Part shown: one piece after another, positions 784 through 17,258 of the stretch
Layout: the number at the start of each line of letters is the position of its first letter
Numbering within the stretch: the first letter of the stretch is position 1
Assembly: GCA_019058295.1 (NCBI GenBank)
Contig: JAHPZI010000001.1
Coordinates: 32,001-96,000 of the forward strand
Direction: 5' to 3'
Length of the DNA: 64,000 bases
Source: Promethearchaeota archaeon
Lineage (GTDB): Archaea > Asgardarchaeota > Lokiarchaeia > Sigyniarchaeales > SOKP01
The notes under the pieces: generated by a model
Told to the model about the DNA's origin: nothing
The model's database searches: none
Seen by the model: only the letters and a program-made list of their open reading frames with translations
Translations under genes and position numbers: made by a program

Positions 784-3700
784 TTAGTTAACAATAGGTT
801 GAATTTTATCAAAAATTACGAGTGTTTTATTTAAGGATTTGAAGATCTCAGTAATGTTTTCCATAAATGCTTTATTATCTATGATTGGTCCATGACTTCC
901 AGGATTTCGGATTGGTGATGATAAAAAAGTAAAATATTGAATTTCTTCTATATCGGGCTTAGAAATTATTGATAATAATAATTTTTTTAATCTAAGAATA
1001 AAAGGATCTTGTTTTGGGTTTAAAATATCCTTTAATAAATAATTTATACTCCCCAAAGTCATATAATCTCCCTTCCATATTTCTTTAATTCCCCTTGGTA
1101 ATCTAATCCACTCATTCTTAGGAATCCTCGAATTTGGTGGATAAATCTTATATAATTCATCAAGAAAGTAAAGTGAAATTTTGGAGTGAAAAAGAGAAGC
1201 AAATCCATTAGTCAATTCTAAGAATATGATCCCTGTATTATCATTTAAACTATTAAAATTTTTAAGGTTTTTAATTAAATCATTAGCTAATATGAAATGT
1301 TTCAATGCATCTTTATCATGAACAATATTTAGATTTATTATCCCACTTATTTGGATATCCATAAAATCTCGTTTAGCTTTCATATATAAAGCAATTTCCA
1401 TATCTATATCTTTAAAGTATTTATAAGCTTCGTCATATATTTCTTGAGCTCTAATAAAATTTAACTTCAGTTCATACATTCTTGCTAAATTAGTTCTAAA
1501 AATTGAATTATTAGGGCTAAGAGAAATTGCTTGTTCAAATATAGGAATTGCTTTTTCAATCTCTTGAATATCACCATATATAGTTCCTATATTATTTAAT
1601 ATAGACCCTTTAAACTCTATTTTTTTTGTAATCCTAAATGCTTTATAAAAATATTTTATAGCGTCTCTAAAATATCCTAGATCAGCAATGGCTAAACCTA
1701 TATCACAATAAATCTTGGATTTCTTCTCATTATGTAATTCATTTATTTTTAAATCTTTAAAAAGATCATTAATCCTACGATTAAATTCCTCACCTTCAAA
1801 CCATATTCTTAAATTTTGAAAACATGACTTGATTATTGAATTAATTTTAAGATAACCTCCATTAGATTCCTCTTCATAAATTCTAAGAAGATTTGAACAT
1901 GCATCAGAGATTTTTCCTAAAATTAAATTGATAAGGACTAAATAATTACAATAATACAAATCATTTGGTCTAAAAAATAATGCATTCTTAAGATATTTAG
2001 AAGCTGATTTATAATCTTGATTATAAAAATATGGAAATGCAATAATCTCCATTGTGAGTCCTAGAAATTTTCTATCAATTGTCCATTCTGTAGAAAACTC
2101 GATTGTTTTTGATATTTCAATAGCTTTTTCAAAACTTGCCATTAATTGGATAAATAATATTTGATTTCCTTTTCTTTTTAAAAAATAGAAAAATTCCTTT
2201 TCTAGATAATCATCAATGCTCTGAAAATTATTTAAGATAAATTTTCTAATATCAAAATAAAATAAATAACTTTCATACAATGAAGGAATTAAAGGTTCTC
2301 TTTCAAAAACTTCAAGTGTCTCAAACTCAAACAAAGTTTTCTTAATTCTTCTTTCTTCATCATAATCTTCAGAAAATAACGAGTTGAGAGGCATCAAATA
2401 ATGTAATACTTCAAAAGGATTAATTAATTTATTCTTGAATAATTCGTCTCTGTTAAAATTTAATTTATTGATAGTCTCTTTTTCTTGTTGAAAATTTTTA
2501 TTAAACCTATAAATAATGCTCTTAATTACTTCTAATTTAACTTTAAAATATATGTTCTCTTCAGTCTCAACTAGTAAATTGAAAATTTCTATCGTAAAAT
2601 CAACATTTTCATTATCTCGCATTTTAGAACTAATTTCTCCAAATAAAAATAATAATTCTATTAAAATTCGATTCTGATGATTAAGCATAGATTTTAATTC
2701 TTCTTTTTTTTCTTTTAATTTAATTTTTAGATTTTGTAGAAAAGGATATTTAAGAATTAATATTTCTAATGCATTTGCGTAATCCTCAATGTTTATATAA
2801 GTTTTGCATAAATATTTGATTAAAATGAGATTATTGATGTTCTCATCACTATAGTTTGGAACTTCAACAAATATTTCGTTGTTTGATTCTTTTATTAACT
2901 TTTCAATTAAACCTTTAATTTCAGACAATAAGTCATATTTATGCCAGATGGGAAGATCTGATATAAAATCCTTTTTCTCATATAAGTTAGGATTAGAATT
3001 TAAGAATTCACATAGAGGCTCAACACCATAAAATTTATTTAAATAATCGATTTTATCTTGAACATTTAGAAAATTAAAATAGATGTAAGCAGCAATATTC
3101 ATAATTTTGCTTCTGATAAAGCTAATATCTATAAATGTTAATTTTTCTTTAATTAAATCTTGAAAATGTTCTAAATACTCTGAAATCTTCGAATGCAAAT
3201 GAGGATATTTTAAGTTATCTACAGTAAACTGTAAATCGTCACATAATGTAATATTTTTCCTCTCAGCTTCAATATAATCTAAAAAATATGGTTTTATATT
3301 CTTTATTACTTCTCTTGTTGCATTTAACAGATAATATTGAGCCTTTCGATTTTCTTTATAGGGGGAGGACCCCCAGAAAAGGAAATATCCTTGATTATAC
3401 CCAGATATAAATTCAAGAAGCATTGATTCTACAGCAACAGCTTCTTGAATTTTACCTTGCTCCATGAATTTCCTCCATATACGATAAACCCAAATGTTTT
3501 TTTGCTCACTTTCTCTAAAAACTGTATTAAAAAAGTAGTTTAATCGTCTCTCATTGATCAAATTAAATTTAATTTCACTTAAGTATAGATCATAATCCTC
3601 TCTTTGTTTAGACTTGATCTCCGAAAATTTAGTGAAAATTACCTTATCTTCAAAAAATTTTAAAATTTCTCTAGTTATTTTTCTCAGATATTCTGATTTT

Positions 3701-4104
3701 TCATTTAGTTCCTTATAAATAGTTAATCTAAAACCAGGATCTAATCGAAATTTCTTTAGAAAAAGATTTTTTAATAAGAAATCTATTGCTATATGATTAT
3801 AATCTACATTTTTTTGGTTTTCTATTTCCTTAATATATTCAATCCTCTGTTTTAAAACAAACCTCTCTAATAAAAAGAATTTATCTTTTATACTAAAAGG
3901 GCTCGCTTTATTATCTTCCAAAAACGGATCAAGAAGTTTATGTGATAATTTTGAGATCGATGGAGACTTCTTCTTCTTTCTTGCCTTCTTATGTGTATTC
4001 TGCTCTTTATTGAATTTCTGGGATTCATGTGAACCCAAATTATGTTTTTGAAATTTATAACCTCTGCTTTTGGTAGGTATTTTAATTTTTTCTTTTTTTG
4101 CCAT
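784..4104 (-). CDS. Large TPR protein with C-terminal HEPN-like domain
   Basis: TPR motifs (GLAIADLGYFRDAIKYFYKAF, LNNIGTIYGDIQEIEKAIPIFEQAISLSPNN); C-terminus MTLGSINYLL...IRNPGSH (RxxxxH). Confidence 0.7.
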   Translation of the reverse strand: MAKKEKIKIPTKSRGYKFQKHNLGSHESQKFNKEQNTHKKARKKKKSPSISKLSHKLLDPFLEDNKASPFSIKDKFFLLERFVLKQRIEYIKEIENQKNVDYNHIAIDFLLKNLFLKKFRLDPGFRLTIYKELNEKSEYLRKITREILKFFEDKVIFTKFSEIKSKQREDYDLYLSEIKFNLINERRLNYFFNTVFRESEQKNIWVYRIWRKFMEQGKIQEAVAVESMLLEFISGYNQGYFLFWGSSPYKENRKAQYYLLNATREVIKNIKPYFLDYIEAERKNITLCDDLQFTVDNLKYPHLHSKISEYLEHFQDLIKEKLTFIDISFIRSKIMNIAAYIYFNFLNVQDKIDYLNKFYGVEPLCEFLNSNPNLYEKKDFISDLPIWHKYDLLSEIKGLIEKLIKESNNEIFVEVPNYSDENINNLILIKYLCKTYINIEDYANALEILILKYPFLQNLKIKLKEKKEELKSMLNHQNRILIELLFLFGEISSKMRDNENVDFTIEIFNLLVETEENIYFKVKLEVIKSIIYRFNKNFQQEKETINKLNFNRDELFKNKLINPFEVLHYLMPLNSLFSEDYDEERRIKKTLFEFETLEVFEREPLIPSLYESYLFYFDIRKFILNNFQSIDDYLEKEFFYFLKRKGNQILFIQLMASFEKAIEISKTIEFSTEWTIDRKFLGLTMEIIAFPYFYNQDYKSASKYLKNALFFRPNDLYYCNYLVLINLILGKISDACSNLLRIYEEESNGGYLKINSIIKSCFQNLRIWFEGEEFNRRINDLFKDLKINELHNEKKSKIYCDIGLAIADLGYFRDAIKYFYKAFRITKKIEFKGSILNNIGTIYGDIQEIEKAIPIFEQAISLSPNNSIFRTNLARMYELKLNFIRAQEIYDEAYKYFKDIDMEIALYMKAKRDFMDIQISGIINLNIVHDKDALKHFILANDLIKNLKNFNSLNDNTGIIFLELTNGFASLFHSKISLYFLDELYKIYPPNSRIPKNEWIRLPRGIKEIWKGDYMTLGSINYLLKDILNPKQDPFILRLKKLLLSIISKPDIEEIQYFTFLSSPIRNPGSHGPIIDNKAFMENITEIFKSLNKTLVIFDKIQPIVN

Positions 4105-4162: not shown

Positions 4163-4684
4163 TTATTTATCTAGTTTTAACATCGTTTTTAGCAAATTCT
4201 CATTCGACTTAATATCGTCTAAGCCTTCCATAAATACTTCAGCAAATCTGAATTTATTCGAGATCCAAAACTTTGAGCATATATCTTGTTTAATATTATC
4301 TTCAATATATAAAATGTGTTCATTTATATCTATATTAAAAGGATTACCATAATCAAACGCCTTTTTTTCAATCCTCTCTCTTAGGGTTGATAATAATTTA
4401 GTTTTACAGAGAAAAATCAAAACAGAATCCCCTGTTAGTTCTAAAGCTCTTTTTATAGCAAATTTATGACATCCGGCACCTGTAAATTCCAATATAACGT
4501 TATTATTATCCTCAATATTTTTAAGAAATTCTTGAAGACAAAAATACTCTTCAGAAATCTTTTCTTTAAGATATTTTCTACGAATTTCATCAATTTGAAT
4601 GAATTTAAATCCAGTAAGCTCTTGAATTATCTTACCTAAAGTGGTTTTCCCACTCCCAATATTCCCGATAATTAAAATTCTCAT
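4163..4684 (-). CDS. P-loop nucleotide/shikimate kinase-like protein
   Basis: N-terminal ILIIGNIGSGKTT Walker A followed by IQIDEIRR; size and layout of the NMP-kinase fold. Confidence 0.75.
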   Translation of the reverse strand: MRILIIGNIGSGKTTLGKIIQELTGFKFIQIDEIRRKYLKEKISEEYFCLQEFLKNIEDNNNVILEFTGAGCHKFAIKRALELTGDSVLIFLCKTKLLSTLRERIEKKAFDYGNPFNIDINEHILYIEDNIKQDICSKFWISNKFRFAEVFMEGLDDIKSNENLLKTMLKLDK

Positions 4685-6168
4685 TTATTAAACACCAAAA
4701 CCTTCTTTATATTTTGAATTGCCTTTTCTGAAACATTGCATTGATTTCTCAAAAATTCTTCAGTTCCTATATATTCATTATCTATTATTTCAAAGATAAA
4801 TTCAATATATTTTCTATTAGTATCACTATAAGATAATAGATAATCTTGTAGTATTAATTCACGGTCTACACCAAGAAGGTCCAATAATAATGCAATTATA
4901 ACGCCTGTACGATCTTTTCCACCCTCGCAATGAATAATTAATCTATTCTTAGAAGCATTACTAAAGTATTTTTCAAAAATTAATCCTAATTCATCTCTAA
5001 AATCTTTCAAAAAAGCATAGTAAAAATTTTCATAAGGTTTATCAGGAATATAAGTGTTAACTTCTATCTTAAATGGAATATTAATTACATAATTCTCTTT
5101 TAACTCATCATCATAAAAATTATTGTATTTAATATAATTCTCAAGTTCATCCTTGCAGCGAATATCCAATATGTGTTTAATTTTCTTTTCCTTTAGAAAT
5201 TCCAATATCATTCCACTATTATTTTTAGATAATGAGGCACTTCTAAATATTAAACCTTCTTTAATTTTTATTTCATCTGAAAAATTGTTCGGGATTAAAG
5301 CAATATCTCTTAAATTTTTAAAAAGGAGATATTTTTCATCAACTTTTTTAAAGAAATTTTGAATATCCGAGAAGATGGCTTTTCCTAAATTAAATTTATC
5401 CATTCCTTTCTTTAAAACACCTAAAAACAAATTTTTTAAATTGTCTCTCTGATCAATCATATCATATTTTCTTAATCCTGCGGAGGCTCTGTAATATTTA
5501 TTTCGCAAATCCCAGTTATCAATAATATCTGTAGTAAATCGACTTGGTTGGTACAAATTATAATGTTTATCCTCTACCATAGCTTTTAATTCTGCTAGTT
5601 TGTAAAAAGAAAGGGAATAATTCATGTAAGCTCGATATTCATCATCTTTAGCAAGATTAGCAAGACACCTTTCAAAATAGTAAATAAATTTATAGATTTT
5701 TTCCTTAAACAGGGCTTTTAATCTATTAATATCGCTAAGATCAATCCAGTTTTCTAGATATATCTGTTTTACTCTGTTATTTTTATCATATCCAATTGCT
5801 TCTATAGGATTTGTTATCATGGATTCTGCTATATAAATGATATCTTCTTTTGCTTCTTCGATCTTCTTAATTCCTATTTCTATTTTAATAAATGTTTTTT
5901 CTGTGAATATTATCCATTTATTATATATTTCAAACTGATTTGAAATTCCCTCATCATCATTATTTAATATTTCAATTACAATTTGCTTAATTTCTTTTTC
6001 TATATTCTCATTAGAGAACTCGTTCAGATAGATGAAGAGATCGAGGTCTGAATAGTAATCATGAGATTTTCGAGCAAAACCCCCATATAATACAATTCCT
6101 TCTATAAATTCCAAACTTTTTATTCCTTCTTCGATCTTATACGCAATTCTATCAATAATCGGGTTCAC
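4681..6168 (-). CDS. Fusion of Pol-beta-type nucleotidyltransferase, helical domain and PTP-like Cys phosphatase
   Basis: LYGGFARKSHDYYSDLDL (NTase DxD); NLRDI...IFRSA...ILDIR and HCEGGKDRTG (CX5R). Confidence 0.8.
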   Translation of the reverse strand: MNPIIDRIAYKIEEGIKSLEFIEGIVLYGGFARKSHDYYSDLDLFIYLNEFSNENIEKEIKQIVIEILNNDDEGISNQFEIYNKWIIFTEKTFIKIEIGIKKIEEAKEDIIYIAESMITNPIEAIGYDKNNRVKQIYLENWIDLSDINRLKALFKEKIYKFIYYFERCLANLAKDDEYRAYMNYSLSFYKLAELKAMVEDKHYNLYQPSRFTTDIIDNWDLRNKYYRASAGLRKYDMIDQRDNLKNLFLGVLKKGMDKFNLGKAIFSDIQNFFKKVDEKYLLFKNLRDIALIPNNFSDEIKIKEGLIFRSASLSKNNSGMILEFLKEKKIKHILDIRCKDELENYIKYNNFYDDELKENYVINIPFKIEVNTYIPDKPYENFYYAFLKDFRDELGLIFEKYFSNASKNRLIIHCEGGKDRTGVIIALLLDLLGVDRELILQDYLLSYSDTNRKYIEFIFEIIDNEYIGTEEFLRNQCNVSEKAIQNIKKVLVFNK

Positions 6169-6169
6169 T

Positions 6170-7945
6170 TTACACGTTCCTCTCTAATTTTTCGTCTTTT
6201 ATTTTTTCAGCAATAATCAATGAGATTATTCCTTCATTTTTCTTTATGGTATTTATTTTAAATCCCGATTTTTGGAGTAGATCTTTGAATTCTCTATAAT
6301 TTCTTTCTTTACTTCCCACATTTACAAGTAAATTAAAATTCAATGAAACTCCAATATCAAAATTAGGATCTTCAGGAATAATCATTTCAAACAATAACAA
6401 TTTTCCATTTTGCTCTAAAGCACTATGGACTGTTTTCAAAATAGTGACTGCCTTTCCATCATCCCAATCATGGATTACTCTACTCATTATGATAATATCT
6501 GTTTTAAAGGGTATATTTCTAAAAAAATCTCCTGGGATATATTCAATTTTCTTTCTAATTGAATCTATATGAGCGAAATTCTTAACACTTTCAATTACCG
6601 ATGCTCTTTCAAACAAAATTCCTTTTTGAATATTTTGATTTTTAAGTAGTATCTTTTCTAATAGGTGCCCTATTCCTCCACCTATATCAGCAATTACTTT
6701 CGCATTGGTGAAATCATATAGATCGATAATTTTGTCATAATCTGAGGAGTACGCCTTCATCGATTTATTAAAAACTAACCCTTTATCTTCATATGTATCA
6801 AAATAATCAAATATTTCTTTTCCGAAAATTTCCTTAAATTGAGGTTTATTTGTCTTTAAAGCTTCTGTCAATTTACTCATTGCAAGATAATGTTCTTCTC
6901 CCCACATCTTAGCAGCATATTTAAGAGTTTCTGGATATTCTTCAGTAAGTAGATTTCCGAGATATTTTAATTTATATACACCATGAATCTCTTCGATAAA
7001 ATCCCAGATCTTTAACACTTGAATAATCAATTTTAATGATGAATAAGGGAGGTTTGTTGTTTCTAATAAATTTTTAAAATTATACTTATTATTTCTAATA
7101 TGATCTAAAATTTCCAATTCAACTATTGAATGAATAATTTGAGTTTTCCAATAGCCAACTAACATCTTCATTAATTTTTTTCTTAAGAACGATTGGATAT
7201 TATGTGAATTTTGATTATCAATCTTTTGAATGGTTTTTCCTTTTTCATCAATAATTAATTTTTCTCTATTGTGCTTACAAACAAGTGCAAATCCATTATA
7301 GAAAGGTTCAATCCATTTATATCGCTCTTGATAAAGTGCTTCTCCATTCTTATTTATATGAAAAGCCCCTCGATTATCTTTTGCAGTCGCAAAACCTTTA
7401 TGGAAAACTCCTAACTCAATAAATTTCTTTTCATGTAAAAAGTTGCCAAATTTATCAATATGTTGAGCAAATCCATCATATCCATAAACAACCGCAATAC
7501 CATATTTGTAATCCCCAACATATTTATATTTTTCATTATAAGCTAATGATCCATCTTTCTTAATATGAAAAAAATCACCACCTATATCTCTAACAGGACA
7601 CCTACCCTCTTGAAAATTACCTACCCATTCATATCTTTTTTCATACTTTGGTTTACCATTTAAACCAATGTGATACCATCCTGAATTATCAACAACAGCA
7701 GCGATTCCCTCATAGAATCCGAATGATTTGATGAATCTTTCTCCATATTGTGGATCCCCTTCAAAAGTGATGTGATATGCCCCAGTATTATCTATCACTG
7801 CGGCAACACCAGGAGGATGGAAACTCAAAACACAATCAAATGTTTTTTCATATAACGGCATTCCCTTATAGAGATGATGAGTCTCATCTTTTGAAATTTC
7901 TATTTTTTCTAAACTAATTTTTTCCTTCTCAGTTATACTACTCAT
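6170..7945 (-). CDS. WG-repeat (beta-propeller) / O-methyltransferase fusion
   Basis: About six repeats of type FxEGxAxVxDxxGxxHIxxxG; C-terminal dimerisation domain, IADIGGGIG, GDFF and SRVIHDWDD of the COMT-like family. Confidence 0.85.
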   Translation of the reverse strand: MSSITEKEKISLEKIEISKDETHHLYKGMPLYEKTFDCVLSFHPPGVAAVIDNTGAYHITFEGDPQYGERFIKSFGFYEGIAAVVDNSGWYHIGLNGKPKYEKRYEWVGNFQEGRCPVRDIGGDFFHIKKDGSLAYNEKYKYVGDYKYGIAVVYGYDGFAQHIDKFGNFLHEKKFIELGVFHKGFATAKDNRGAFHINKNGEALYQERYKWIEPFYNGFALVCKHNREKLIIDEKGKTIQKIDNQNSHNIQSFLRKKLMKMLVGYWKTQIIHSIVELEILDHIRNNKYNFKNLLETTNLPYSSLKLIIQVLKIWDFIEEIHGVYKLKYLGNLLTEEYPETLKYAAKMWGEEHYLAMSKLTEALKTNKPQFKEIFGKEIFDYFDTYEDKGLVFNKSMKAYSSDYDKIIDLYDFTNAKVIADIGGGIGHLLEKILLKNQNIQKGILFERASVIESVKNFAHIDSIRKKIEYIPGDFFRNIPFKTDIIIMSRVIHDWDDGKAVTILKTVHSALEQNGKLLLFEMIIPEDPNFDIGVSLNFNLLVNVGSKERNYREFKDLLQKSGFKINTIKKNEGIISLIIAEKIKDEKLERNV

Positions 7946-8987
7946 TTAAACACTCTCCAAGATTTTTTAATGGTCTTCTCATGTTGCATTGTTTACAAAC
8001 CTGATAAGTACCCCAATTGTTTATTAAATGTCTGTAGCTATCACTATTCCATAGTTCCATGAAATTCATTTCTTTTACATTACCAAAGTATCCCAGTGTC
8101 CTTCTTAAATAGTCTGGAGCACAACATACGTTAAAGGTTCCATCCCAGGCTATCCAAGCTTCCCTCCCTAAGAATGGACATATAAAATTTTCTGGAAATA
8201 TATTATTTTTAGAGTTATTTGAAATAGAATATATATTATCGAGTTTAATTTTTTTACCATTTTTTAAAATGGAAGTATCAGCGATTCTTTTCATTTTTTC
8301 AACGGTTTTATTCCATTTTTTTATAGATTCTTTGTCTTTCAATAATGATTGATTTTCTAATTCAGGATGAGTAATCCATAGATGATGCCCCTTAAAGCGA
8401 TCAATATTCAATTCTATTGCCAATTTAAGGAGTCCTAGTATCTCATCTAAATTCTTTTCCATAAATGTTGCCTGAAAAGTTATAGTTGGAAAATTTATCG
8501 CCTTCTGTCTAATATCGTCTCTAATATTAATAAATTTTTTAATATTAGAGATCTCTTTTTCAAAATTTATTCCTTCCATAATTTGTTCATTGATACATTT
8601 TGAGGCACCATTAATAGAAATTTTAATATCGCTAATAATTGGTAAAATTAATTTTCCCCATTTTTCAGCACCTAATCTTGGAAAAGTACCGTTTGTAGTT
8701 AAATTCATTTTAAGATTATAACTTTTTACTAGATTTATTAGATCTATAAATTTGTCATAAAGGAGTGGCTCGCCCATAGTACTGGGTATTATTTCCTTTA
8801 AGCCATAATTTACTAAATCTTGAACGACCTCTTTAATAGTTTTAAATTCCATTACTCTAAAATCCTTATGCTTATTAAAATTATATTTACTATGCTCCTC
8901 ACACATCATACAATGAAGATTACACTGATCAGGATTTGTATCGAATGTAATTCTCCAGGGTACCTTTAATTTTTCTTTAATGAACAA
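7938..8987 (-). CDS. Radical SAM protein with SPASM/twitch domain
   Basis: CNLHCMMC (CX3CX2C), MGEPLL, TTNGT; C-terminal CP...DGTFNVCC...GNV...WNS...CKQC. Confidence 0.9.
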   Translation of the reverse strand: MFIKEKLKVPWRITFDTNPDQCNLHCMMCEEHSKYNFNKHKDFRVMEFKTIKEVVQDLVNYGLKEIIPSTMGEPLLYDKFIDLINLVKSYNLKMNLTTNGTFPRLGAEKWGKLILPIISDIKISINGASKCINEQIMEGINFEKEISNIKKFINIRDDIRQKAINFPTITFQATFMEKNLDEILGLLKLAIELNIDRFKGHHLWITHPELENQSLLKDKESIKKWNKTVEKMKRIADTSILKNGKKIKLDNIYSISNNSKNNIFPENFICPFLGREAWIAWDGTFNVCCAPDYLRRTLGYFGNVKEMNFMELWNSDSYRHLINNWGTYQVCKQCNMRRPLKNLGECLNE

Positions 8988-10254
8988 CGAATCGAACCTC
9001 CTCTCTTTTTAGAAGTTTATAATATAATTCCTCGATTTCTTTGACATCTTCTTGAATTGAGCGCACATAAGTTTTTTGTGAATATATATCAATGAGTTCT
9101 GCATTTTCAATGAAAATATTCATCTTTTCTATTAAATCTTCTACATTCCCGGGCTCAAATAATAACCCATTCTTTTTATGTGAAACTAGTTCTGCCATCC
9201 CTCCTAAGTTGCTCGTAATTACTGGAATCTTAGCTAAAAAGGCTTCATGAATTACTAAAGGTGAATTTTCATACCAAATTGACGGAACTACTAAAATATC
9301 AATATTAGATAGAATTTTTGAAATTTCTTTATAATGATAACCACCCATAAAATGAATCGCGTTATTTTTACACCGATTTTTAAGATAAATTGATGAGCTT
9401 GGCATTTTCCCATAAATATTAAGCTCTGATTTAGAATGATCAACATTATTGAAGGCTTCAATTAATTGAGCAAGTCCTTTAACAGGAATAATTCTCCCTA
9501 AAAATCCGAACCGAATTTTTCCATTGGGTTGTTTTTTTACTCCATTAATTATTTGTTTATCAAAACCGTAATCCATATAGATAATTTTATCTTCTGGAAT
9601 TCCGTAATTAATATATGTATTGCGAAGGAATCTGGAAGGAGCGATAAATAAATCGATCTGGTTATTTATTTTAGAAAATGAAGTTAACCATCTCTTAATC
9701 TCAAGTTTTGCTTGTAACTCTGATGTGAAGTATTTCATATTACAATTTATACATTTTTCGAAGCTTGGTCCTGAACAGAGTGAATAATCATCTTGAATTA
9801 ACTGGCCTCTAATGCAGAGCATCCAAAAATCATGAAGCGTGAAAATAATGGGAATCCCATTTTTTTTTATGATTTTTATGATTTGAATAGTAAGATGGCT
9901 TAAATGGTCTATATGAACAATATCGGGGCTAATTTCCTTCAATTTTTCTCTAAATACATCTGCCATTTTAAAATCGATATATTTACTACGAAAAGTATAA
10001 ACTCTTCCAGGTTTATTAACCCGAATTATCGTTAAACCATCTTCAATCGTCTCAGTTATTTCATAAGGTTTTTGATATTCATCTTCTATACGAGTAAAAA
10101 TAATAACATTATGCTTTTTTGCAAGCTCACGGCATTTGTTCCAAGCATAAACTTCAGAACCTGCCATATAATAAGGGGGGAATCCGTGAATGATAATTAA
10201 GATTTTTAATCTTTTTTTCTTATTATTTATCTTTTGGTAGTTTTTATAATTCAA
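8977..10254 (-). CDS. Glycosyltransferase family 4 (GT-B)
   Basis: HGFPPYYMAGSE, TLHDFW, GRIIPVKG, VVPSIWYENSPLVIHEA. Confidence 0.9.
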   Translation of the reverse strand: MNYKNYQKINNKKKRLKILIIIHGFPPYYMAGSEVYAWNKCRELAKKHNVIIFTRIEDEYQKPYEITETIEDGLTIIRVNKPGRVYTFRSKYIDFKMADVFREKLKEISPDIVHIDHLSHLTIQIIKIIKKNGIPIIFTLHDFWMLCIRGQLIQDDYSLCSGPSFEKCINCNMKYFTSELQAKLEIKRWLTSFSKINNQIDLFIAPSRFLRNTYINYGIPEDKIIYMDYGFDKQIINGVKKQPNGKIRFGFLGRIIPVKGLAQLIEAFNNVDHSKSELNIYGKMPSSSIYLKNRCKNNAIHFMGGYHYKEISKILSNIDILVVPSIWYENSPLVIHEAFLAKIPVITSNLGGMAELVSHKKNGLLFEPGNVEDLIEKMNIFIENAELIDIYSQKTYVRSIQEDVKEIEELYYKLLKREEVRFVVH

Positions 10255-10260
10255 TTCTTA

Positions 10261-10331
10261 TCATCTCCTTGAAAACTTACTCAACATTTAATCGGTTGAG
10301 GGTAAGGAGGTGCCCTCCTTGGAGTAAGTTT
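10261..10331 (-). promoter_or_regulatory. Putative structured 5' leader (three-helix junction) next to the ribosome-binding site
   Basis: Inverted repeats aaacttactc/gagtaagttt (10273-10282/10322-10331), aaggagg/cctcctt (10304-10310/10314-10320) and ctcaac/gttgag (10280-10285/10295-10300). GC-rich patch in AT-rich surroundings. Confidence 0.5.
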
Positions 10332-10386
10332 ATCTTGTTATTTTACACTTATTACTAGAATTAAGCAACAATTTATATTTATATTT

Positions 10387-10454
10387 AACTTTTTTTTTCA
10401 TATTTGAATAAAAAAGTTTATTAAGAAAATTTACCATTTTTTATTTGGTAAATT
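10387..10454. promoter_or_regulatory. Two operator-like palindromes in the divergent promoter
   Basis: 14-bp arms at 10387-10400/10405-10418 (1 mismatch); perfect 9-bp arms aatttacca/tggtaaatt at 10428-10436/10446-10454, abutting the ATG. Confidence 0.4.
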
Positions 10455-11105
10455 ATGAAAACATGTCAAATTGCTACAGTTGGGGAAAATATCGAATGGA
10501 TTTTGAAAGGTTTATTGATATTTAATGCAAATAAGCTTATACTTATTTCCACATCAAATCCAGAATTTTTAAAAAAAATAATTGATATAAAGAATAGATT
10601 AATAGATCCTGAGTTTGAATTTAAACCTTTAGAGATTGAAGAGATTATAATTGAAAGCGAGAACCCATTTGAATTTATAAAAATACTAAAAAAAATAATC
10701 TTGGAAAATGGTAGAAAAGGATTCCAAATTGAAGTGAATTCTACAGCGGGTCTTACTATTTGGCAAACTTTAAGCTATTTTATTGCTATTCAATTAAGAG
10801 AATTTGTAAGAAACTATTTTATTATTAATAAACAAAAGGGTGATGCATTTTCACTACCCTTATTAATTCTAAATAAAACTGAACAGACTTTTTTAGACTT
10901 ATTAGGAGAAAAGACTCTAAATATAGAAGATTTAAAAACAGAATATGAGAATTTTAAAAAAAAGGAAGTATCAGTTGGATTAATTTCAAAATATTTAACA
11001 AAATTAAAAGAAAAGAAATTAATTCAAGAATCTAAAGTTGAGAGATTTAAATTTTTTAGATTAACAGAACTAGGAAGGATTTATAATCTTAATGTAATAA
11101 TATAA
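10455..11105 (+). CDS. CARF-like + winged-HTH transcriptional regulator (Csa3/DUF6293-like)
   Basis: IATVG...KLILIS...IEVNSTAG Rossmann-like N-terminus; C-terminal SVGLISKYLTKLKEKKLI...FRLTELG wHTH. Confidence 0.7.
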   Translation: MKTCQIATVGENIEWILKGLLIFNANKLILISTSNPEFLKKIIDIKNRLIDPEFEFKPLEIEEIIIESENPFEFIKILKKIILENGRKGFQIEVNSTAGLTIWQTLSYFIAIQLREFVRNYFIINKQKGDAFSLPLLILNKTEQTFLDLLGEKTLNIEDLKTEYENFKKKEVSVGLISKYLTKLKEKKLIQESKVERFKFFRLTELGRIYNLNVII

Positions 11106-11134: not shown

Positions 11135-13045
11135 CTAAGGTTCTAAAGTACAAAGATTTAATAACAGATTGGTATCTTCATTAATTAATTTATTCTCAAT
11201 ACTCTTTATTGTTTCTTCACTTAGATCTATTTTATTTCCTCTTATTATATCTTGTATTTTATTCTTACCTCCATGAGAACAGCTATTTCTAATTGCAACA
11301 AAATTATATGATTTTGCCCCACATTTAAATCTACACTCTAAGAAATTTAAAATTTCTTTAATATGTTTTAGATTTTTTTTTCCAATTAAGACTCTGAATA
11401 ATTTAAATGGTTTGAGATATGTTTCAGGAATATGATGAAACGAATTAATGTTATATATTGACGAAAGGATATAATAAATTTTACCTAATGTAGGTAATAC
11501 TCTAAATTTAATATATCTTTTTAGGTGTTTGAGTGTTTTATTAAATTCCCTGTCAATTTTCCATAAACCATAAGTATTTATATCATCATTAAGCTCATTT
11601 AATATTTTTTCATGGTAGTTAACAAAAAATTTAATACGTAATTCGCATTCAATGGCATCAGAAATTTTATTAATACAGGATCGATAATCATTAGGCATTT
11701 TATCTAATGTTTCTTTAAACATAATTAAATGATCTTGCGTTTCTTCATCAAAATTAGTAAAGCATTCGTCATTTAGAGTTTTTAACCATACTCCTCTATA
11801 ATATTCTCTCTCTTTTTTTATTTCTTCTCCTGTTTTTTTTTCTTGTTTTGTAGATTCTAAAGTAGCATTAGCAATATTTTCACTTATATCTGAATTATGT
11901 AGTTTTTTACAAATTTCTACAACATTTTCAGAAGTTTTTTCAACTTCCTTAAGTTTAATTTCAAAAGGTCTATTTTCTAAAATATCATTGATTCTTCTTA
12001 TTGTCTCTGGTAAATCGATGAACTTTTTTTTATAATATTCTTTCATTTTGGGATTTTTAATTGAATTCAGAATTAATTCATAAGCGGTTAAAGAATTTGA
12101 ATAATTACGAAAGGCTTCTGAATATGATTCAGCATCATGGTATAGTTCGCCTAGAGCTTTATAAGTTTCAGCCATTCCATGATAATATTTGATTTTGATG
12201 GCGATTTTTAATGATTCGTCAAAATTTTTATAAGATTTATTAAGTTGATTAATTTTTTGATATATTTGACCAATTAATCTTAAAATTTCAGATTTCATTT
12301 TTAAATTCTCAATTTTATCTTTTATTTTTAGAAGCTCTTCAAGATGTTTATAAGATTCTTCATATTTCTCTTGAAGATATAATGCTCTGATTTTATTTCT
12401 CAAGGCATAAGCCTTATTACTTAAATCTCTATTTTTTATAGATAAATTATAAGCCTTTTCACTATATTCAATTGCTTTCTTAAATATATTTTTCTTTGTT
12501 AAAACTGAAGAAATCATATTATAAATTCCTGAAAATATATAATTTGGTGCTCCAACTTCTTCATATAATTTGAGAGCAGTTTCCAAATAACTTAATGACC
12601 TATCATAATCTCCTAAAACTTCATAATAAACTCCAGTAGAATTCTTAATTTTAGCAATTAAATATTGATCTTTTAATTTTTCAGCTATATCCAATGCACT
12701 CATTAAACATTCATAATACTCATCAAACTCTAATAAATATTGGTGTACATTTGCTAAATGATTTAAATATCGAGGCATCTTATTATATAGCTTTAATTTC
12801 TTAATCATTTTTAGAGCATTAATATATTTTTCCTTTGCTTCTTCATATTTACCCATTCTATGAAGTATTCTTCCTATATTTTTAGTTGATTCAGCTATCA
12901 ATTCAGGATCATTGATTTTAATTGCCAACTGTTCGCATTTTAAAAAGATTTTATATGCATCAGAAATTTCTCCATCAAAATACTTTTTTTCTGCTGTTTT
13001 TGTACACTTATCAAATTCTTTATTTATATCCATTTCAATCAACAA
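11135..13045 (-). CDS. TPR protein with C-terminal HEPN-like domain
   Basis: About eight MalT-like TPRs; C-terminal DYRSCINKISDAIECELR...TLGKIYYIL...IRNSCSH. Confidence 0.75.
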   Translation of the reverse strand: MLIEMDINKEFDKCTKTAEKKYFDGEISDAYKIFLKCEQLAIKINDPELIAESTKNIGRILHRMGKYEEAKEKYINALKMIKKLKLYNKMPRYLNHLANVHQYLLEFDEYYECLMSALDIAEKLKDQYLIAKIKNSTGVYYEVLGDYDRSLSYLETALKLYEEVGAPNYIFSGIYNMISSVLTKKNIFKKAIEYSEKAYNLSIKNRDLSNKAYALRNKIRALYLQEKYEESYKHLEELLKIKDKIENLKMKSEILRLIGQIYQKINQLNKSYKNFDESLKIAIKIKYYHGMAETYKALGELYHDAESYSEAFRNYSNSLTAYELILNSIKNPKMKEYYKKKFIDLPETIRRINDILENRPFEIKLKEVEKTSENVVEICKKLHNSDISENIANATLESTKQEKKTGEEIKKEREYYRGVWLKTLNDECFTNFDEETQDHLIMFKETLDKMPNDYRSCINKISDAIECELRIKFFVNYHEKILNELNDDINTYGLWKIDREFNKTLKHLKRYIKFRVLPTLGKIYYILSSIYNINSFHHIPETYLKPFKLFRVLIGKKNLKHIKEILNFLECRFKCGAKSYNFVAIRNSCSHGGKNKIQDIIRGNKIDLSEETIKSIENKLINEDTNLLLNLCTLEP

Positions 13046-13336: not shown

Positions 13337-13379
13337 AATTTCGGGACCAAAAAAGCAGAAGAATGGAAGAATGGCTTGA
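13337..13379 (+). repeat. Right copy of 43-bp direct repeat, overlapping the methyltransferase start
   Basis: aatttcgggaccaaaaaagcagaagaatggaagaatggcttga; 38/43 identical to 739-781. Confidence 0.85.
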
Positions 13380-15981: not shown

Positions 15982-16536
15982 TTATACTTCCATTGATTGA
16001 TTTGCTGTGGTTATTTTTCTATAATCTATGATGGTGCTTACTAATGATTCAAATACTTCATTGACGTTATATCCTGTTTTCGAGGAGACTTTTAAATATC
16101 CGCTTATATTATTGTTTTCGACAAACTGACGAACGTATTCATCATCAACCATGATAGACTCTATTAAATCATATTTAGATCCCAGAAGAAGAATAGGGAG
16201 TGTGGGATCATCTTTACGGATAAGATTTATCCATTTAGGTAAATTCATAAAACTTTTGAAGATTGTTAAATCAAACATTAAAAATGCACCTGCGGCACCT
16301 TTTACAAAATCATCGAGCATGAATCTGAACCTTTCTTGTCCGCCAAAGTCCCATAATTGTAATGAGCAGACGGGACCCTCTTTTAAAGTAAGGACTTTAT
16401 GAAGAATATCAGTACCGATGGTCATCTTCGCTTCATATAAGAATTCCCCTTCAATATAGCGGTGTAGAATAGTAGTTTTCCCTACACCACCATCACCAGC
16501 AATAATAATTTTAAAGACTAGACTGGGATTAATCAT
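15982..16536 (-). CDS. Rab-like small GTPase (paralog 1)
   Basis: GDGGVGKT, TIG, WDFGGQERF, SKYD, SSKTG. Confidence 0.9.
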   Translation of the reverse strand: MINPSLVFKIIIAGDGGVGKTTILHRYIEGEFLYEAKMTIGTDILHKVLTLKEGPVCSLQLWDFGGQERFRFMLDDFVKGAAGAFLMFDLTIFKSFMNLPKWINLIRKDDPTLPILLLGSKYDLIESIMVDDEYVRQFVENNNISGYLKVSSKTGYNVNEVFESLVSTIIDYRKITTANQSMEV

Positions 16537-16703
16537 TAAATTTCAATAATTTAATTTGATTTTTAAAATTTCCATTTATACAACATTAGAATTATATGTA
16601 TAAAAATTATGAATAATTTAAATAAGTTTTAGATTTGTTTATTTATTAAAAAAAGCTAAAGTTCTTATTAAAGATCTTATAGCTTCCTTTAGGGAGGAGT
16701 AGT

Positions 16704-17258
16704 TCAAACTTCCATTGATTGATCTGCTGTGATTAAATGTCTATATTCTATGATAGTGTTTACTAAAGATTCAAATACTTCATTGACGTTATATCCCGTT
16801 TTCGAGGAGACTTTCAAATATCCGCTAATATGATTGTTTTCGACAAACTCGAGAACTTCTTCATCATCCACACAGATAGAATCTAATAAATCATATTTAG
16901 AACCTAGAAGAAGAATAGGGAGGGTTGGATCATCCTTACGGACAATTTTTATCCATTTAGGTAAATTAAAAAAACTTACAGGGTTAGTTAAATCAAACAT
17001 TAAAAATGCCCCCGCAGCGCCGTTTACAAAACTATCGAACATGAATCTGAACCTTTCTTGTCCACCAAAGTCCCATAATTGTAATGAGCAGATGGGTCCT
17101 TCTTTTAAGCTAAGGACTTTATGAAAAATATCAGCACCGATGGTCATCTTCGAATCAAATAAGAATGTACCATTAACATAGCGGTGGAGCATAGTAGTTT
17201 TTCCTACACCACCATCCCCACCAATAATAATTTTAAAGATAAGACTAGGATTAATCAT
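16704..17258 (-). CDS. Rab-like small GTPase (paralog 2)
   Basis: Same G1-G5 motifs; tandem copy offset 722 nt from paralog 1. Confidence 0.9.
   Translation of the reverse strand: MINPSLIFKIIIGGDGGVGKTTMLHRYVNGTFLFDSKMTIGADIFHKVLSLKEGPICSLQLWDFGGQERFRFMFDSFVNGAAGAFLMFDLTNPVSFFNLPKWIKIVRKDDPTLPILLLGSKYDLLDSICVDDEEVLEFVENNHISGYLKVSSKTGYNVNEVFESLVNTIIEYRHLITADQSMEV

Follow-up and report, generated by a model that had tools for sequence, protein, structure and literature searches.

An apparently undescribed structured leader RNA of Lokiarchaeia with a predicted loop–Shine–Dalgarno pseudoknot: an orphan riboswitch candidate

The analysed window is a 64,000-nucleotide stretch of a Promethearchaeota archaeon contig (JAHPZI010000001.1, positions 32,001 to 96,000). 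A first-pass annotation had singled out 71 nt of this window as a riboswitch-like leader (10261–10331, minus strand), and the mRNA-strand sequence it gave matches the window exactly. The 3' end of this sequence lies 6 nt upstream of a TTG codon (10254), which is the start of a 425-aa GT4 gene; this start is supported by close homologs from Promethearchaeota/Lokiarchaeota, which are also 425 aa long. The leader heads a GT4–radical SAM–methyltransferase operon in Lokiarchaeia, which here comprises five abutting or overlapping genes on the minus strand, namely the GT4 glycosyltransferase (8977–10254, Pfam PF00534/PF13439), a radical SAM/SPASM protein (7938–8987), a WG-repeat protein with an O-methyltransferase (6170–7945), a fusion of a nucleotidyltransferase with a tyrosine-phosphatase-family protein (4681–6168) and a P-loop small-molecule kinase-like protein (4163–4684), the last staying below family cut-offs except for a marginal shikimate-kinase Pfam match. 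The cassette (4163–10254 of the window) is patchy, occurring in 6 of 135 genomes of the family, and recurs in more than 100 bacterial or archaeal loci (L035–L177), mostly Bacteroidota among the named genomes. The cassette is common in bacteria, where the loci searched are without the leader RNA. Neither NCBIfam nor PADLOC holds a family name for the GT4–radical SAM–WG/methyltransferase–NTase/phosphatase cassette, and no description of it was found in literature searches of incomplete coverage.

A 38/43 direct repeat (739–781 and 13337–13379) brackets the cassette and duplicates the start of a methyltransferase gene, which suggests an island boundary. No recombinase was recognised among the listed ORFs inside the interval. 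The interval may plausibly be an island of defence or secondary-metabolite genes, and PADLOC returned generic matches only. On either side of the cassette lies a gene for a TPR protein whose C-terminus has an RNxxSH (HEPN-like) motif (784–4104 and 11135–13045); the 636-aa one of these two proteins accompanies the CARF–HTH gene described below in several type-A loci. In addition, two tandem, closely similar genes for Rab/Ras-like small GTPases of 184 aa each, typical of Lokiarchaeia, are located at 15982–17258.

To compare the leader across relatives, GT4 homologs were gathered from genomes and metagenomes, the initial search for related loci with a single protein as query having returned nothing. 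Loci with the leader directly before GT4 were designated type A. A covariance model built from type A alone found a diverged form, type B, about 450–700 nt upstream of GT4 in loci outside the training set, and a second covariance model, R2, brought type B to 14 loci. In total, 28 distinct related loci carry the element (14 type A and 14 type B). Two close GT4 loci are without it: the upstream region is replaced in L186, and L028 has an insertion between a peptide gene and GT4. Among the 135 family genomes, all matches with E < 1e-7 fell in the six genomes that have a close GT4 homolog, each of which holds the element once, at the head of the cassette operon. Weaker family matches (E 5e-4 to 0.04) were treated as chance, and two of them, L191 and L192, are without the arrangement of P2 and anti-Shine–Dalgarno (anti-SD) sequence described below. 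BLAST, nhmmer and both models detected no extra copies in the source genome, where the element is single-copy. Moreover, R2 gave no credible match when run on some 140 cassette loci, bacterial and other, that included flanks of at most 5 kb, and did not find the element in 83 genomes of another Asgard class, in 41 mixed Asgard genomes or in five named cassette carriers from other families, many of these genomes being incomplete. Pattern scans of viral contigs yielded chance matches only, all of which failed R2. Across the genomes, cassette loci and viral contigs searched, the RNA was found in one family and one gene context only, and therefore no second context points to a ligand.

A TATA box (TATAAATA; TTTAAATA in homologs) occupies a conserved position at 10376–10383 on the minus strand. 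It lies 48–55 nt before P1, the outer helix of the element, in most type-A leaders and 37–41 nt before it in most type-B leaders. Archaeal promoters have a standard TATA-to-TSS spacing, from which the TSS is predicted about 20 nt (type A) or 7–10 nt (type B) before P1, near 10353 in this copy. The predicted TSS lies upstream of P1 and not downstream of the structure, the position that the first-pass annotation had named as refuting. Between this promoter and a divergent one lies an AT-rich palindrome (10387–10418), which may represent an operator or back-to-back BREs and has a mean identity of 83% vs. 65% for the adjacent spacer in 12 type-A loci. The palindrome occurs in nearly all type-A loci with the CARF–HTH gene and has a TATA-like box on either side. 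The divergent gene (10455–11105, plus strand) encodes a Csa3/CasR-like CARF–HTH regulator (PADLOC CARF/CasR, E 1e-10 to 1e-8; TIGR01884, E 0.006), which was found at type-A loci only, and the palindrome is a candidate operator of this Csa3-like regulator outside CRISPR. A perfect 9-bp inverted repeat (10428–10454, AATTTACCA/TGGTAAATT) adjoins the start codon of the CARF–HTH gene, and homologs keep one half of it only (TGGTAGATT-like). By sequence, no solved relatives were found for either the radical SAM or the CARF–HTH protein.

Comparison of the leaders indicated that the element is very probably a conserved, covarying and strand-specific RNA in which P1, P2 and P3 form a three-way junction. 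From 5' to 3', P1 is followed by a J1/2 strand of 4–5 nt, by P2, by P3, which abuts both P2 and P1, and, after a further 0–2 nt, by the Shine–Dalgarno (SD) sequence; the junction has no J2/3 or J3/1, leaving J1/2 as its sole unpaired strand. In this copy (minus strand), the P1 5' strand (AAACUUACUC, 10322–10331) and 3' strand (GAGUAAGUUU, 10273–10282) form a perfect 10-bp inverted repeat that also covaries among homologs, with 97.7% pairing in 13 type-A leaders. J1/2 (CAAG, 10318–10321) is a candidate pocket. P2, which covaries on the tree, consists of GAGGG (10313–10317) and CCCUC (10298–10302), and its 5' strand has the anti-SD as a possible alternative partner. The L2 loop (10303–10312) contains the anti-SD CUCCUU (10304–10309) and would provide the 5' side of a pseudoknot. 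The P3 hairpin (10283–10297), 5–8 bp long in most homologs, has decayed here to an AAC/GUU pairing.

The first-pass annotation had drawn the 10-bp outer stem around two hairpins, AAGGAGG/CCUCCUU and CUCAAC/GUUGAG. Both the 10-bp inverted repeat and the AAGGAGG/CCUCCUU complementarity are present, but the drawing is inconsistent, because GAG belongs both to the 6-bp CUCAAC/GUUGAG hairpin and to the outer stem, so that these two cannot coexist as drawn. The drawing also overlooked P2, which is 96.9% paired with double changes at four of its five pairs and has the consensus AAGGG/CCCUU in the 13 type-A leaders, where P3 is 90.8% and the loop–SD helix 95.6% paired. RNAalifold recovered P1 plus P2 from the type-A leaders. 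In contrast, AAGGAGG/CCUCCUU is 72.5% paired in homologs, with two of its seven pairs broken in 10–11 of 13, so that its role as the conserved fold is largely refuted. This hairpin, which has no covariation support, would at best be one register of an alternative state.

Folding of the single sequence was barely beyond shuffles (z = −1.8 to −2.75), and the anatomy is rare in the genome, occurring at 2 of 9,894 SD-like sites with the present site included. Comparison with homologs places the element far beyond chance. Covariation among homologous GT4 leaders had been suggested as a check in the first-pass annotation, and the leaders proved to be both conserved and covarying. Co-changes were counted as branches on which both partners of a pair changed, using the 28 leaders on the tree of their GT4 proteins. 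P1 showed 6 co-changes vs. 1.4 expected (p ~ 0.002), P2 10 vs. 2.0 (0 of 20,000 draws) and P3 12 vs. 4.4 (0 of 20,000 draws), p values that are optimistic because the null is heuristic and home-made and the segmentation favours pairing. Slide and shuffle controls agreed with the tree-based covariation. Furthermore, the 532 helix cells included 30 G·U pairs but not a single A·C pair, which argues that the element acts as RNA on the mRNA strand and not as a DNA palindrome. Two features of P1 are near-invariant, a C–G pair (28/28) and an A–U pair (27/28). Conservation of the J1/2 pattern C-x-A-G is 82–89% (C 25/28, A 23/28, G 23/28), and no unpaired nucleotide is invariant, the best being the J1/2 C and an A in L2 (25/28 each). 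The mean identity of the type-A element is 78%, compared with 65% for the adjacent spacer (56% shuffled) and 42% for fourfold-degenerate codon sites in type A.

In this alignment the anti-SD sits in the P2 loop and not in the AAGGAGG/CCUCCUU hairpin. The L2 loop is complementary to the SD sequence just 3' of P1 (AAGGAGAUGA, 10261–10270, minus strand), a pairing with the topology of a pseudoknot. The complementarity of CUCCUU to AAGGAG reported in the first-pass annotation is retained; the hairpin of CUCCUU with its own arm is not part of the conserved fold. The 4-bp core UCCU/AGGA is paired in 28 of 28 leaders, and all changes in it preserve pairing (three C>U wobbles and one double change from U–A to C–G). 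The flanking pair next to the core is C–G in type A and U–A or U·G in most type-B leaders. The loop–SD helix showed 7 co-changes vs. 3.8 expected on the same tree (p ~ 0.056), a marginal value attributed to the constraint on the SD side. GGAG begins 14 nt upstream of the start codon, the genome-wide peak being 13–14 nt, and the spacing from SD to start is conserved in homologs. In type A the element lies 16–17 nt from the GT4 start and directly covers the GT4 SD. Complementarity of loop and SD in every leader, together with a functional-looking SD, is the pattern of an expression platform, and it is likely that the P2 loop occludes the SD through a pseudoknot, the formation of which we infer. 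SD spacing also bears on one gene start: the database start of the 420-aa P0002 in L178 (5989–6001) has probably been placed four codons too far downstream, as the conserved spacing favours an ATG 12 nt upstream.

Downstream of the covered SD, each of the 14 type-B loci has a start codon and an open frame that runs for 43–93 codons (for example, L025:2635–2806). Each of these leader ORFs has P ≤ 0.03 by shuffling; their sequence is not conserved, and their frame and length differ. In 12 of the 14 loci the frame closes between −20 and +34 nt relative to the start of the following gene, with the peptide start of L033 possibly misplaced. The next gene encodes a short NPNN-repeat peptide and lies upstream of GT4. 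Open frames that end at the peptide gene argue that translation from the covered SD has been selected and is relayed downstream. In addition, the leader ORF contains a second anti-SD (UUCACUUCCU) that is complementary to the SD of the peptide gene, with little covariation in the seven loci aligned. Leader-ORF relays are known from IncI repY–repZ and the aac/aad leader. The type-B loci resemble these systems in that the leader ORF stops at a second SD for which there is a further complementary anti-SD. They differ in that the pseudoknot covers the leader ORF's own SD, and neither an antisense RNA nor a resistance gene was identified. A TATA-like, frame-independent motif, TGGTAAAGTNAATTTTNAT, is conserved about 50–60 nt before the type-B peptide start and may be an internal promoter or an RNA element. 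The peptide itself, about 40–50 aa with the motif DNRSNQLNPNN, was observed in type-B loci (L025:2628–2960, L006, L007, L002, L020, L023, L024, L027, L030, L033, L034, L054 and L183) and near some bacterial cassettes (L096, L124 and L173). It has no NCBIfam match and was found neither in type-A loci nor in the source genome (79% complete). A modified-peptide substrate or a regulator is possible.

Rfam 15, searched in gathering and E-value modes, gave no matches in the window and nothing near threshold in the window or one homolog, in agreement with the first-pass annotation, which had recognised no known family. No match was obtained on 14 cassette loci, mostly bacterial, either. Translational riboswitches use RBS-containing pseudoknots (PMC10907184). 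The SAM-II/V, SAM-SAH and preQ1-I/II riboswitches resemble the leader in placing the RBS in the 3' helix of a hairpin-loop pseudoknot (PMC10907184), in being compact and in lying right before the start codon. However, they are H-type, whereas the leader's loop belongs to the inner helix of a three-way junction that is closed by a 10-bp P1, with the SD outside P1; moreover, there is no Rfam similarity, and the leader's genes belong to neither SAM nor queuosine metabolism. The SAM-III (SMK box) and SAM-VI riboswitches share the three-way junction, SD occlusion and similar size, but the SAM-III junction itself hosts the RBS (PMC10907184), whereas the leader's SD lies 3' of P1, its partner being a loop. 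In one homolog, the SAM-VI model reached 13.9 bits in a different segment, the cut-off being 57.5, and SAM-III gave no match. PreQ1-III likewise combines a multi-helix junction with a distal loop–RBS pairing, but it differs in topology and size, without an Rfam match or relevant genes here. In the cobalamin-II riboswitch, too, a loop docks on the RBS. The fluoride (crcB) riboswitch was the only experimentally shown natural archaeal riboswitch as of 2021 (PMC8241225) and the only native archaeal one listed in 2024 (PMC11549558); it is an archaeal leader with presumed translational control, as here, but it matches the leader in neither sequence nor structure, and no fluoride-export genes are present. 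In the uS4 alpha-operon and uS15 rpsO operators, a pseudoknot or three-way junction over the RBS represses translation (PMC10931766). These operators resemble the leader in layout, but the leader has no ribosomal-protein gene or identified binding protein. In literature searches of incomplete coverage, no published description was found of the motif itself or of riboswitches in Asgard archaea, and the main text of a 2026 preprint atlas of intergenic motifs mentions no Asgard, glycosyltransferase or radical SAM.

These features suggested a translational switch by direct occlusion, a proposal that, taken whole and with a small-molecule ligand included, is tentative and somewhat below even odds. 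In the OFF state, the loop–SD pseudoknot would stack on P1 and block the 30S subunit. In the ON state, the SD would be freed by opening of the pseudoknot or by slipping of the P2 5' strand onto the anti-SD, which is feasible because the anti-SD is almost a copy of the P2 3' strand (UCCUU/CCCUU; UUCCU/UUCCG, in both types). Relative to the P2 fold, the alternative fold lies higher by 1.8 ± 2.5 kcal/mol on average and lower by 1.5 kcal/mol in this copy, where it corresponds to the AAGGAGG/CCUCCUU hairpin; the loop–SD duplex averages −8.2 kcal/mol. Since the energies are near balance, a ligand, a protein or conditions could tip the states. The alternative ON helix shifts register between sequences and has no covariation support. 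The targets of the switch would be GT4 and the enzyme genes adjoining it in type A and the leader ORF in type B, where translation would be relayed to the peptide gene and GT4. Most speculatively, a small molecule would tip the balance, either at the junction or at the interface of P1 and the pseudoknot. The most plausible ligand would be a compound made by the sugar/nucleoside-tailoring cassette, either its product or an intermediate (feedback OFF), or else a nucleotide signal. A small molecule is the best guess because of the fixed junction geometry, the J1/2 C-x-A-G pattern and the exclusively metabolic nature of the shared genes. Metabolite aptamers usually keep invariant pocket bases, and the missing invariant unpaired base speaks against such a ligand, as does the single gene context.

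The boldest reading, to which we assign a probability of roughly 0.35, would make the element a riboswitch class of its own, restricted to Asgard archaea, with a three-way-junction/loop–SD pseudoknot architecture that Rfam does not contain. Such a riboswitch would sense a cassette product or a nucleotide signal related to defence, and its control of translation would be direct in type A and by way of the leader-ORF relay in type B. A doubtful but serious alternative is that the pseudoknot is a ligand-independent gate, which would either prevent the translation of transcripts that leak from a costly island operon or have temperature, Mg2+, transcription speed or a helicase as its sole input, with control of transcription left to the CARF–HTH regulator. 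Conservation concentrated in helices and not in unpaired bases, a rough energy estimate that favours the pseudoknot state, and the patchy island with its HEPN-like TPR genes and direct repeat at the ends are consistent with such a gate; however, a plain anti-SD hairpin would suffice for it, and the fixed junction, the J1/2 pattern and the near-invariant P1 pairs exceed what masking needs. Translational repression by a protein bound to the junction or pseudoknot is unlikely, whether that protein is a host factor or one of the cassette enzymes shared by both types (GT4, radical SAM or WG-repeat methyltransferase). Pseudoknots and three-way junctions over an RBS have known precedents as protein operators (PMC10931766), and the moderate conservation of unpaired bases and the strict linkage to one operon would fit autoregulation. 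Nevertheless, the obvious candidates are not shared: the CARF–HTH protein and the NPNN peptide are each confined to one type, so that neither is a universal partner, and the shared enzymes have no recognised RNA-binding domain.

The remaining explanations carry little weight. The switch implied by the first-pass annotation, in which the AAGGAGG/CCUCCUU hairpin alternates with nested anti-SD/SD pairing and P2 is dispensable, draws on the fact that this hairpin is the lowest-energy nested fold with a free SD in this copy (−16.8 vs. −15.3 kcal/mol), but it is very improbable given the far higher pairing of P2 (97%), whose repeated compensatory changes include this copy. It is equally hard to maintain that the element does not regulate the enzyme genes but is a stand-alone small RNA, or a small toxin or leader transcript. 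The TGGTAAAGTNAATTTTNAT motif could indeed be an internal promoter just before the type-B peptide gene; however, the type-A element directly covers the GT4 SD, and the type-B ORFs vary in frame, length and sequence yet end at the next SD. Scarcely credible is a feature at the DNA level, such as a transcription-factor operator, a cruciform or a MITE remnant. The outer repeat is perfect here and a regulator gene adjoins it, but the element has a single genomic copy where a MITE or IS end would be multi-copy, its G·U pairs lie on the mRNA strand, it is kept in type-B loci that have no regulator, and the separate palindrome at 10387–10418 makes the better operator.

The leader thus appears to represent an apparently undescribed family of structured cis-regulatory RNA of Lokiarchaeia and a candidate orphan riboswitch. 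The family is about 75 nt long and has a clear expression platform, so that it is open to in vitro tests for which the host need not be grown. Binding of a small molecule would make it a lineage-specific archaeal riboswitch class, and the ligand would point to the product of the GT4–radical SAM–methyltransferase cassette. If it binds none, the leaders would still provide direct comparative evidence for SD-based, structure-mediated translational control in Lokiarchaeia, and comparison would likewise evidence the coupling of leader ORFs to downstream translation in this lineage.
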